DNA of 64,000 bases. It comes from Escherichia phage JLBYU43. Positions within the stretch are counted from its first letter, which is position 1. Every line of letters starts with the position of its first letter. The notes beneath the pieces were generated by a model that did not search any database, had not been told where the DNA came from, and saw nothing but the letters and a program-made list of their open reading frames with translations. Where the stretch lies: sequence record NC_105512.1. One strand, written 5' to 3'. The position numbers and the translations under genes were made by a program. This document shows positions 59,674 to 63,947 of this stretch, piece by piece.

Positions 59674-61431
59674 TTAGGTAAGGCGTTGAACTGTTACTCT
59701 TAATCTAGGTAGGAAAACCGCACTACCTAAACTTACGTGCATAACTACCCCTAACTCTACATTCCCATTTCCTAGATTTTTAACTGTATATATGAAACTA
59801 TTCCTACTTAGTGCGTTATTAGGTGTGTATCTAAATGCAGATGTAGTATGAAATGGTACTAAGTAACCTACAGGTAGCGTTAAAATCTGGTGGAATATTG
59901 CATCTCCATTACTATAGCTATAAGCCCTTCTTCCCTGCACCTGAAATACACCGTTATTCCATGTATTAGCCGGAACACCTGCACAGTTAAGATTACCAGA
60001 TATAACTTCAGTAGTAAGAATAACAGTAGCATTACCTCCTGGAATTCCTAGTCCAATAGTAGATAGAGCCACGTATCTATCTCCAGTTCCGGGGTAGTAA
60101 GGAGTAATATCATCTCCCATGTAAGAACTACCAACATTTCCACTAAAAAGTCTCAGAGGAACTGAAGAAGGTCCCCAAACAACACCATGTTCGTTACCAA
60201 TAGTATTATTACTTGAGTTTACGTACCATTGCTTACCAGCTCCGAATTTGTAAATACTAATTTGAGACTTAGCCCCTCCATAGTCTACAGGAGACCATAA
60301 ACTCCCGTTACTAGAACCTACAAGTTCGCACCTTGCGGTGGTATCTCCAAAGGCTCCAGTGTACGCTGCGTTATTTCCGACGTATTCCATATCTGGCCTA
60401 TAACCTAAGTTACCAAAAGCATTCTGGTTAATAAACTTATACCCAGTATTAGGAAGACTAACCCCTTTTATAGTAAAATTAGAGGGTGAGATAAGAATAT
60501 CTGAACCAGTAAAAGGATTACCAGAGATACCCATATTACCATTAGAATACCTCAGATTAAGTACATACCAAATAACCTTAGTAGGAGTTATGTTATACCA
60601 ATCCTGTAGTATTGTAGAATCACCAGATTGATTAGCTAAATTAGTTGTAGAACCCCTACAAACAAATCTGTTACCCCCATCGTGGTACATAGTATTTACA
60701 TTGCCAGGAAGACCTTGTCTTACCCCGCCATACCCACGTATGTTAGAGCTACAAACATAGAACCAATCGTGTCCTCTGTGTGCTGATCCTAAAGGAGACA
60801 TCCATCCCGGGTCCCAGTAATATTGGTTATTACCATCTATAGGTACTGTACTACTATTAGTAGGAAAACCCAACTGTGCAAAAGCTTTTGCAACAGTAAT
60901 ACCTACTGGAGCTTCTGCACCTGGCCTAACTATACCATGATAAGTACTATGTAGGGTAGTTCCCCCAGTACCATTTCTAGAGATAGATTCTTCATGCCCT
61001 ATAGATGGGTTATAGTTATATGTTCCAGATGCCAGGCTATTACCAAATGCAAATCCACTAGTTTGGGAAACGCTAGCAAAAGATCTAAAAGGATCTGCTT
61101 GAGTGGCAACTATAGTTTGACCAACTTTACTCTGAGTACCATTAAGAAAAGCTCTGTGAGTACCATTTATCTCAATAGCAGTTAGTATAACTCTACCAGG
61201 ATCGTTAGATTTAATATTTATTATGTCAGCGGGCATTTGACATACAAAAAACCCATTACCGGCATCACCTAATCCAGACTCATAAGTACCATCAACTAGG
61301 ACGAAAGGCATATCGGAGTGGAAGATACTATTAGTATTTGGAGAATAGTGCTCACCAGTATCACCACCATTAGCAGCGTTTAGAGATAATACAGTTTTAC
61401 CATCACTAAATTTTCCTGCGAAAAAACTCAT
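59674..61431 (-). CDS. receptor-binding tail protein (pb5-like, 585 aa)
   Basis: N-terminus MSFFAGK; divergent orientation to llp; RBS AAGGAGA. Confidence 0.7.
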
Positions 61432-61514: not shown

Positions 61515-61781
61515 ATGAAAAAGTTACTAGCTATCGTAGTTGCAGCAGTAGTGTTGACTGGTTGTGTACCAGCTCCCGAGCCATTCTGTAAGGCATACGT
61601 GAAGTCTTATGGACATGTTGGTGAAGAACACTACGCTTTAGATATTCGAGAAGCACGTACTGTGGGCTACCGATTCCCTAAAACTCAGTTACGCACTAAG
61701 TTTGGGTGGTGGGATTTGTCACAGTTTGATCTCAAATATGGTGATTGCAAATTTAAACTAGAACAATCTGGTCACTTGTAA
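61515..61781 (+). CDS. llp: Llp-like lipoprotein (superinfection exclusion)
   Basis: signal peptide with lipobox LTGC; RBS GAGGAA; divergent from RBP gene. Confidence 0.7.
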   Translation: MKKLLAIVVAAVVLTGCVPAPEPFCKAYVKSYGHVGEEHYALDIREARTVGYRFPKTQLRTKFGWWDLSQFDLKYGDCKFKLEQSGHL

Positions 61782-62110
61782 TTAGTATAAAGTAAAAAGA
61801 TCTCGAAGTAAACAAAAATTTTTATTTCTGGGATGAGGTACAGGTAGCAAACACAATGCAAGATGAAGAAAAGTCCTTTCAGGAACCTGTTAACTTTGAA
61901 ATAAATCCCAGGAATAAAAAGCAATACATGATGCAATTGATGAAATCATTCAAGACGTCATAGAAGATACAGTAGAAGACGTGATGGGAACATCCTTCTT
62001 ACTAGAAGAATCCGGCTTCGACGAAGTAATGGATCTAATCGGGACAGTCGTAATGGTTCGTGCAATTGCTAGGGTATTCCAAATACCAGGACTACAGGAG
62101 AAGCAAAGAG

Positions 62111-62650
62111 ATGTCAGACGATAATAGAAGAAGGCAAGAGGAATTAAAAAGACTCTATGACTATAATCCAGAGACGGGAATTTTTATCCAGAAAACTACA
62201 CGTGGAGGTAAAATAGCAGGTAGTATTGCTGGATCACTCCACTCTAGTGGGTATATACATATAAGGTTTGAGGGCAAGCCTCAGAAAGCACATAGATTAG
62301 CCTTCCTATTTATGGAAGGATATATCCCAGAAGAAGTTGATCATATAAATAGAGTACGTAATGATAATAGATGGACTAACTTAAAAGAATCCTCCAGGTC
62401 TGAAAACAATAGTAATGTAAAACGTAAAAACAAATCTGGATATTCAGGAGTTCACTGGAATAAGAGAGATTTAGGATGGCAAGTCACCATTAGGAAAAAG
62501 GGAATTAGTTATTCAAATGGATTTTTTGAATACTCTGAACTACCACAAGCGGTTGAAGCTGCTAATAAACTTAGGTTAGATTTATATGGCAAATCAGCTC
62601 TGATAGAAGAATTCGACGGAAAGTTACCAAGTATTGAGGATTTAGTATGA
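62111..62650 (+). CDS. HNH homing endonuclease with AP2-like domain
   Basis: ATG 62111 with RBS AGGAGAA; VDHINR...NRWTNL. Confidence 0.7.
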   Translation: MSDDNRRRQEELKRLYDYNPETGIFIQKTTRGGKIAGSIAGSLHSSGYIHIRFEGKPQKAHRLAFLFMEGYIPEEVDHINRVRNDNRWTNLKESSRSENNSNVKRKNKSGYSGVHWNKRDLGWQVTIRKKGISYSNGFFEYSELPQAVEAANKLRLDLYGKSALIEEFDGKLPSIEDLV

Positions 62651-62751
62651 AAAAGGTAATAGATGCGTGGATAAATAGTTTCGGATTCGGAACTGTATTA
62701 TTCTTTATCTTTGTACTCTTTTGGTTAGCAGCTATGGCGGGGTGGATTTAA
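62647..62751 (+). CDS. tiny membrane protein 1 (34 aa)
   Basis: ATGA overlap with HNH stop; hydrophobic FGFGTVLFFIFVLFWLAAMAGW. Confidence 0.35.
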   Translation: MKKVIDAWINSFGFGTVLFFIFVLFWLAAMAGWI

Positions 62752-62906
62752 TGGAATGGGTAATTATTGGCATATTCGTCTTATTGATACTTCTCTTTGT
62801 AGGCTTACGTGTAATAGATACCTCTGTAACCCAAACAGAAATTAAATTAATGCAGTTGAGCAATAGATTATCTAGAATTGAAACTTTATTAGAGGAGCGT
62901 AAATAA
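62751..62906 (+). CDS. tiny membrane protein 2 (51 aa)
   Basis: TAATG overlap; RBS GGGGTGGA; MEWVIIGIFVLLILLFVGL...RIETLLEERK. Confidence 0.45.
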   Translation: MEWVIIGIFVLLILLFVGLRVIDTSVTQTEIKLMQLSNRLSRIETLLEERK

Positions 62907-63013
62907 TGGAATGGGTAATTATTGCACTACTGGGGATTGTGATTATTGGGCAGTGTATTCTAGATAATCACTTAGCTAGAATTGAAACCTTACTATCGGA
63001 GAAACGTAAATGA
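62906..63013 (+). CDS. tiny membrane protein 3 (35 aa)
   Basis: TAATG overlap; first 19 nt identical to protein 2; RIETLLSEKRK. Confidence 0.4.
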   Translation: MEWVIIALLGIVIIGQCILDNHLARIETLLSEKRK

Positions 63014-63204: not shown

Positions 63205-63421
63205 TATTGTAATTGCTTTTATTATCGGGATACTCGCGGGAGTTTTCGGGACGACTGCGGCAATTAACAAGCATCGTAAATATATTGCGGGAGTGTCGCG
63301 GGAAATTGCGGAAAGGGAGCGGAAGTTTGATGAGAAACGTGCGGAGTTTGAGCGAGAATGGTCGGATGGATCTCGGGCGTCGCGGAGGAGATTTAGGGCA
63401 AAGGTGAGCGATGAAGAATAA
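63197..63421 (+). CDS. tiny membrane protein 5 (74 aa), GC-rich codons
   Basis: RBS GAGAGGGAA; FSIVIAFIIGILAGVF then Arg/Glu-rich tail; gcg/cgg/ggg codons atypical for this genome. Confidence 0.45.
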   Translation: MFSIVIAFIIGILAGVFGTTAAINKHRKYIAGVSREIAERERKFDEKRAEFEREWSDGSRASRRRFRAKVSDEE

Positions 63422-63947
63422 CTTAAGTATACAGGACATAGAAGAAGCATTTGCTTATGATCCCGAAACTGGAGTTTTCACCTGGAAAAGCGGCAATCGT
63501 AAGGATAAAGAAGCAGGTACTTTAAATAGGGGGTATAGGCAGCTTAAATATCGAGGATTTAAAGCTTATGCACATCAAGTAGCTTTTGTTATTATGGAAA
63601 ATAGGTGGCCAGAGGAATGTGTAGACCATATAGATAGGAATAAGCTAAATAATAGGTGGTCAAATCTGCGAGAAGCTACAATTACGGAAAATAATCGTAA
63701 CGGTAGAACCTCAAAAACATCCTCAGGCTACCTAAATGTTACGTGGCATAAGGGACTTCAGAAATGGATGGTAAGATTACATGATAAGCATGGACTTATA
63801 AATGGTACTACTAAGTATTTTTCCTATGACAGATTGGAAGACGCAGTAAATTATGCGAATTTACTAAGAAAGAAATTTCATGGCAGCTTTGCAGTACAAG
63901 AGGCATTCAAAGGGAATATACCAGATGTTGTTCAGTTAAACAGTTAA
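63411..63947 (+). CDS. HNH homing endonuclease with AP2-like domain
   Basis: RBS AAAGGTGAG; VDHIDRNKLNNRWSNL; C-terminal half similar to 20707-21240. Confidence 0.7.
   Translation: MKNNLSIQDIEEAFAYDPETGVFTWKSGNRKDKEAGTLNRGYRQLKYRGFKAYAHQVAFVIMENRWPEECVDHIDRNKLNNRWSNLREATITENNRNGRTSKTSSGYLNVTWHKGLQKWMVRLHDKHGLINGTTKYFSYDRLEDAVNYANLLRKKFHGSFAVQEAFKGNIPDVVQLNS

Follow-up and report, generated by a model that had tools for sequence, protein, structure and literature searches.

A probable recently inactivated pseudogene of a small accessory gene directly downstream of llp in a T5-like phage

Introduction

Does the short interval between the llp gene and an HNH endonuclease gene of Escherichia phage JLBYU43 hold a gene, and in what condition? 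The window analysed here is a 64,000-nucleotide stretch of record NC_105512.1 (38.8% GC); the phage is T5-like and belongs to the genus Epseptimavirus. In this interval the first-pass annotation had noted an acidic open frame with a start codon only far inside it, overlapped by a 35-codon ORF in another frame, and had proposed a decayed or frameshifted small gene next to an endonuclease insertion. Comparison with related phages leads us to conclude that the region is very probably a recently inactivated pseudogene of a small T5-like accessory gene, a member of family phrog_16810 that lies directly after llp and whose product, ~88-104 aa long, is acidic and predicted to be all-helical.

Results

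The locus and its neighbours

The features on which the argument rests are the following, with positions given in the window.

59674-61431, minus strand: pb5-type receptor-binding protein gene
61515-61781, plus strand: llp, the gene for a Cor-type superinfection-exclusion lipoprotein of 88 aa (lipoprotein signal; phrog_1119 match, E 1e-23)
61835-61845, plus strand: Shine-Dalgarno-like GAGG (61835-61838) and AGGT (61842-61845), 5' of ATG 61856 (read from the sequence)
61856-61918, plus strand: codons 1-21 of the phrog_16810 gene (MQDEEKSFQEPVNFEINPRNK), its 5' segment, still in the original frame (alignment; phrog_16810 positions 1-22)
61916-61920, plus strand: lesion, an A5 run with two extra A's that also creates AAA-AAG (alignments with relatives)
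61921-62124, plus strand: 3' segment, codons 22-88 (AIHDAIDEII...QRDVRR) and TAA, now in the -1 frame (alignment; phrog_16810 profile match)
61922-61963, plus strand: out-of-frame tail of the 35-codon ORF (QYMMQLMKSFKTS and TAG), a by-product of the frameshift
62111-62650, plus strand: HNH homing endonuclease gene, 179 aa (PF13392 and phrog_99)
62647-62751, plus strand: remainder of a phrog_8596 small membrane-protein gene with the new start MKKVIDAW... (phrog_8596 positions 12-42 of 42)

The upstream neighbour at 61515-61781 fixes the synteny of the remnant; this slot is labelled llp or receptor-blocking protein in the Sepoy, DT57C and TrudiRoth records. The remnant itself occupies 61856-62124, the gene position right after llp, and is followed by the HNH gene, the phrog_8596 remainder and small membrane-protein genes. 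The homologue of its AGGT motif is the annotated ribosome-binding site in the Sepoy record. A scan of the llp-to-remnant interval for promoters and terminators gave nothing above shuffle expectation, which is compatible with co-transcription of the remnant with llp. Among the membrane-protein genes, those at 62751-62906 and 62906-63013 are tandem paralogous single-pass mini-genes, both phrog_6369; the first carries an internal insertion of ~16 aa, and TrudiRoth has a single phrog_6369 copy at the matching position.

Two open frames and their ancestral gene

The acidic frame at 61918-62124 is as first described: its 69 codons comprise 68 sense codons and TAA, and it translates as KAIHDAIDEIIQDV...QRDVRR* (in full, KAIHDAIDEIIQDVIEDTVEDVMGTSFLLEESGFDEVMDLIGTVVMVRAIARVFQIPGLQEKQRDVRR). 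Its acidic character also holds (pI 4.3; 15 D+E against 7 K+R), and its first start codons are indeed GTG 61981 and, directly after it, ATG 61984. The 35-codon ATG ORF at 61856-61963 (MQDEEKSFQEPVNFEINPRNKKQYMMQLMKSFKTS) overlaps it as noted, and relative to this ORF the acidic frame is the -1 frame. One alternative is a chance open frame without coding history. In AT-rich DNA, 69 codons without a stop are nothing unusual (at the window composition, P ~0.009 for each starting point), and a few such runs are expected in 64 kb read in six frames, so that length alone is weak evidence of coding.

It is homology, and not length, that leads us to accept a coding history for the acidic frame. Against the phrog_16810 profile, the 35-aa ORF matched positions 1-22 (E 5e-8) and the 47-aa GTG-started ORF matched positions 42-88 (E 2e-27); when both pieces were joined at the junction, the frame-corrected 89-aa protein matched positions 1-88 of 104 (E 6e-54). 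In a codon-by-codon alignment the 5' segment lines up with the intact genes of Sepoy, SuperGirl, S114, S124, Shivani and BB1, and the start-less frame opens at 61918, one codon before the 3' segment begins. The intact genes themselves show an excess of synonymous changes. With profile matches of E 2e-27 and 6e-54 and this codon-for-codon alignment, we give the chance reading no credence. The remaining part of the 35-codon ORF, its tail at 61922-61963, has no homologue, and the profile match of that ORF ends at residue 22. Few contigs came up in exact-protein look-ups with the mini-ORFs, as gene callers usually pass over such ORFs.

In the relatives the ancestral gene is a single intact ORF of 88-108 codons that shares the position of ATG 61856 (Sepoy, SuperGirl, S114, S124, Shivani and BB1); the EPS7 gene is likewise intact. 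The product of Sepoy gp068 (YP_009845377.1) reads MQDVEKSFQEPVNFEIDPRTKAIHDAINEIIQDV...QRDVRRQQKKEQTRGSVRKLDK. The order of llp, phrog_16810 slot and phrog_8596 gene is shared by Sepoy, SuperGirl, S114, BB1 and TrudiRoth. Homologues fall into 29 protein clusters, all from T5-like phages and all at least 67% identical, and most of the family's invariant columns fall within residues 43-79. The ancestral protein contains no Pfam domain. An AlphaFold model predicted a four-helix arrangement with moderate confidence (pLDDT 71.5); nothing in the PDB shared this fold (best E ~7), and the model retrieved only its own family from BFVD. The Pfam, homologue, PDB and BFVD comparisons thus yielded no functional inference for the protein.

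The lesion and its distribution

Alignment with the orthologous regions of relatives, which have one intact homologous gene at the same ATG, supports the earlier proposal of a decayed or frameshifted small gene. In the DNA alignment the only structural difference between the window and the intact relatives is +2 nt at 61916-61920: relatives read ...CCC AGG ACT AAA GCA ATA CAT..., and the window reads ...CCC AGG AAT AAA AAG CAA TAC AT.... The window copy retains the end-to-end profile match and the synteny of phrog_16810 without its single uninterrupted ORF, and since the two nucleotides split it into two frames, we regard it as a disrupted and not a functional member of the family.

The most plausible course of events is that insertion of two A's in ACT AAA GCA displaced codons 22-88 to the -1 frame. 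Translation from ATG 61856 would then give 35 residues, namely 21 native ones, a lysine from the junction codon AAG and 13 nonsense residues, before the stop TAG at 61961-61963. The 68 downstream codons would still look gene-like because stops have had too little time to build up in the window copy.

The lesion lies in an A run, which raises the possibility of a homopolymer sequencing or assembly error in a phage whose gene is really intact. The 343-nt region has matches in 225 phage records at 80% identity or more, and searches with exact junction 30-mers found AAT AAA AAG in 61 records and ACT AAA AAG in 27. The frameshift allele is therefore present in ~88 of the ~231 phage records that hold the full region, and its carriers represent at least 8 ICTV species from numerous laboratories and countries. 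Occurrence of the same lesion in ~88 records of such varied origin marks the allele as genuine rather than a product of sequencing; moreover, the difference is of two bases, not one, and the identical junction recurs in 88 independent records on two haplotype backgrounds. The probability of such an error is, in our judgement, next to nil.

The ACT form of the junction equals the Sepoy-type sequence plus AA, so the insertion probably happened first, in a gene of that type, with the C-to-A change coming later. In KKP 3953, the AA insertion sits on a background whose protein is otherwise identical to that of the intact Sepoy gene. This arrangement suggests that KKP 3953 may carry the earliest form of the lesion, or that the lesion may have spread by recombination between phages.

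Signs of decay in carriers

To compare carriers with intact copies, lesions and substitutions were tallied in 24 of the ~88 carriers, including the window, and in 22 intact copies, a sample drawn from the ~231 records; the sampled sequences are related, and the counts approximate events only. Scans of IMG/VR yielded 5 loci by protein pattern and 3 by DNA pattern, and a single metagenome scan yielded 3. Further disabling changes were found in 13 of the 24 sampled carriers: loss of 1 nt immediately after ATG-43 (PMBT31, bombadil and saus176N), gain of 1 nt at codon ~71 (SE19 and vB_SenS-3), ATG to AGG together with Q2* (two metagenome contigs), Q80* (nine carrier sequences) and R88* (SH9). Q80* removes only the variable C-terminal tail and may be tolerated. 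Broken frames were absent from all 22 intact-type copies, each of which measured exactly 264 nt over codons 1-88 at a divergence of up to 22%, with the qualification that 12 of the 22 had been retrieved via the intact protein and were thereby unable to show lesions.

The substitutions told a similar story. Over codons 1-83, carrier-private changes numbered 1 synonymous and 12 nonsynonymous, small counts from related sequences that are compatible with the neutral synonymous fraction computed for this gene (0.21-0.26). Intact-private substitutions, at 52 synonymous to 42 nonsynonymous, departed strongly from neutrality, and the two sets differed with Fisher p 0.002, a value to be read in the knowledge that the sequences are not independent. 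Equally shallow intact copies gave an underpowered comparison, with 0 synonymous to 3 nonsynonymous private changes and, in the folded counts, 10 to 6 against 15 to 27 in carriers.

The window copy itself shows no secondary lesion; its ATG, its ribosome-binding site and the entire -1 frame are intact. Taken together, the locus combines intact orthologues and a frame-breaking lesion with relaxed selection and added lesions in carriers, the latter two in small numbers of non-independent sequences. All of this fits a recently inactivated pseudogene, from which presumably no useful level of full-length protein is made, while spontaneous slippage on AAA-AAG could still yield a trace of it.

Could a shorter or recoded product survive?

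Internal initiation, or termination followed by reinitiation, at GTG 61981 or ATG 61984 would produce a C-terminal peptide of 46-47 aa that might be functional. Both codons are in frame, they lie 18-21 nt past the TAG of the 35-codon ORF, the resulting ORF is annotated in several GenBank records, and the peptide would hold most of the invariant family residues (columns 43-79). However, the preceding sequence, agaagacgtg, provides no Shine-Dalgarno motif; a peptide begun here would be without the first, long helix of the predicted bundle; secondary lesions also damage this ORF, namely the loss of 1 nt directly after the ATG, the gain of 1 nt at codon ~71 and Q80*; and intact relatives never have a separate gene there. 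We therefore consider a functional internal start highly improbable. Non-canonical starts in the -1 frame, ATA 61924 (10 nt after AGGA) and ATT 61936, were also considered and set aside, being very weak at best and opposed by the secondary lesions.

A second way to rescue the gene would be compensatory or programmed -1 frameshifting, in which some of the ribosomes slip back by one base on AAA-AAG (61916-61921) and continue into GCA ATA CAT. The product would be an 89-aa protein with one extra lysine relative to the ancestor (junction ...NPRNKKAIHDAIDEI...), and the indel would then lower expression instead of abolishing it. Several features of the site agree with this reading: TAA 61915-61917 lies just before the slip site, so that the -1 frame is open from precisely there; the protein so predicted gives a full-length match to phrog_16810; and the allele persists in ~88 genomes. 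The junction AAU AAA AAG contains A_AAG, which in E. coli is the tetramer of highest efficiency and the A-site motif most prone to shift (PMC4066793), and there are precedents for a 'savior indel' (PMC5009743).

Set against these features, U_AAA_AAG (61915-61921) is not a canonical X_XXZ_ZZN heptamer, and the P-site tRNA would have to re-pair on UAA. Under the motif definition of PMC4066793, only the A-site tetramer A_AAG of this heptamer qualifies, and tetramers free of stimulators shift at ~0.15% against a background of 0.11% (PMC4066793). RNA folds of 61922-61990 and 61900-62020 had stabilities typical of shuffled sequence (z 0.17 and -0.5), and an Rfam search returned no element. The only Shine-Dalgarno-like sequence, AGGA (61910-61913), ends 2 nt before the AAA AAG hexamer. 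Stimulation of -1 shifting by such sequences needs a 5' spacing of ~10-14 nt. In addition, over half of the carriers sampled, several sub-lineages among them, have acquired new breaks in the -1 frame, and carrier-private changes run at 1 synonymous to 12 nonsynonymous. Programmed -1 sites are recognised by a canonical heptamer, a stimulator and conservation of both frames together with the site, and this locus shows none of the three.

Compensatory or programmed frameshifting is thus very unlikely. The bolder version, a low-output 'savior indel' gene whose 89-aa protein with the extra lysine arises by a -1 slip on AAA-AAG and whose down-tuning explains the spread of the allele to more than one third of sequenced Epseptimavirus genomes, strikes us as extremely doubtful. 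Transcriptional slippage was rejected: the run has only 5 A's, against the runs of ~9 for which efficient bacterial slippage has been described (PMC5009743). A recently inactivated pseudogene remains our preferred interpretation of the locus.

The neighbouring HNH insertion

The position beside an endonuclease insertion was correctly noted in the first-pass annotation, as the HNH gene at 62111-62650 adjoins the remnant and overlaps its last 14 nt, but any connection with the lesion did not hold. An HNH gene at the matching site occurs only in Tennessee and PS3-1 (2 of 433 matching records); it is the same HNH, and in both phages the upstream phrog_16810 gene is intact. Conversely, all sampled frameshift carriers other than the window are without the HNH. 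The lesion and the HNH insertion are therefore unrelated events.

The insertion has its own structure. TrudiRoth and relatives encode an uninterrupted 44-aa phrog_8596 protein, MSDDNRRKNRRGEVYESWINSFGFG...; in the window the HNH protein begins MSDDNRRRQEEL..., and the displaced phrog_8596 remainder restarts as MKKVIDAWINSFGFG... at 62647. The HNH gene was inserted in frame in the 5' end of the phrog_8596 gene, reusing its first seven codons (MSDDNRR), and the new ATG of the remainder overlaps the HNH stop. A synonymous GAC-to-GAT change in the HNH cassette creates the TAA that ends the remnant at DVRR. A second HNH gene, a paralogue of that at 62111-62650, lies ~760 nt downstream of it at 63411-63947 (phrog_99, 178 aa), and homing endonucleases seem to favour the stretch from llp to the terminal repeat as an insertion site.

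Independent losses in relatives

The frameshift is not the only form of damage at this slot. In DT57C (NC_027356, 1201-1376) only 176 nt separate llp from the next gene; this interval reads ATG TAA GAA AAG TAG..., carries further stops and a ~190 nt internal deletion, and still has a recognisable 3' end. In some 180 records the match to the query is confined to its first ~104 nt. The DT57C-type loss is independent of the window lesion and more advanced, and the window copy represents an early stage of gene loss. Since the phrog_16810 gene has been lost by different routes, we infer that it is dispensable.

Discussion

Our analysis indicates that the start-less acidic frame downstream of llp is very probably the 3' part of a phrog_16810 gene that a 2-nt insertion recently separated from its start. 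The locus reveals no new mechanism; it is best described as an ordinary, young and widespread pseudogene. What it offers is a decay series within one phage group, from intact through frameshifted and multiply damaged copies to a deletion relic. A literature search on the locus returned nothing relevant.

The practical value lies in annotation clean-up, as ~88 public T5-like phage genomes have the split gene called as two or three meaningless mini-ORFs or left blank. Copies or fragments in S124 (YP_009806208.1), BB1 (YP_012134670.1), H8 and JLBYU43 bear the label 'receptor blocking protein'. The phrog_16810 protein matches neither Pfam nor phrog_1119 and does not classify as an Llp lipoprotein, for which a signal peptide with a lipobox and a match to the Cor/Llp family would be required. 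The label looks mis-propagated, the real llp being the upstream gene at 61515-61781.

How does the window copy compare with known systems? Sepoy gp068, EPS7 AGC_0169, Stitch162 and SuperGirl bas29_0207 occupy the same slot, after llp and before the phrog_8596 gene, with the same start codon and ribosome-binding site, and their products are 90-98% identical in amino acids to the frame-corrected window protein. These genes are uninterrupted ORFs of 88-108 codons, whereas the window copy is split by +2 nt; its 3' end stops at DVRR, like the 88-aa S114 and atrejo forms. The frameshift allele is shared with 1-23, PHZ191, SB13, TrudiRoth, bux and further Epseptimavirus carriers, whose junction AAT AAA AAG is identical to that of the window at 98-99.7% nucleotide identity. 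Annotation at the locus in other carriers amounts to two tiny hypothetical ORFs or nothing, and many of them bear extra lesions (Q80*, 1-nt indels) absent from the window copy. The Tequintavirus relic of the DT57C type shares the llp-to-phrog_8596 locus and recognisable ends with the window, but is much further decayed.

Recoding sites of the dnaX, IS911 and IS3 type (A_AAA_AAG) share with the window the AAA-AAG lysine pair, the shifty tRNA-Lys(UUU) and an open -1 frame. Unlike them, the window heptamer begins with U and not A, and it has neither a downstream hairpin or pseudoknot nor a properly spaced Shine-Dalgarno sequence. In contrast to the dnaX, IS911 and IS3-type systems, moreover, carriers of the window type show no purifying selection on the -1 frame.
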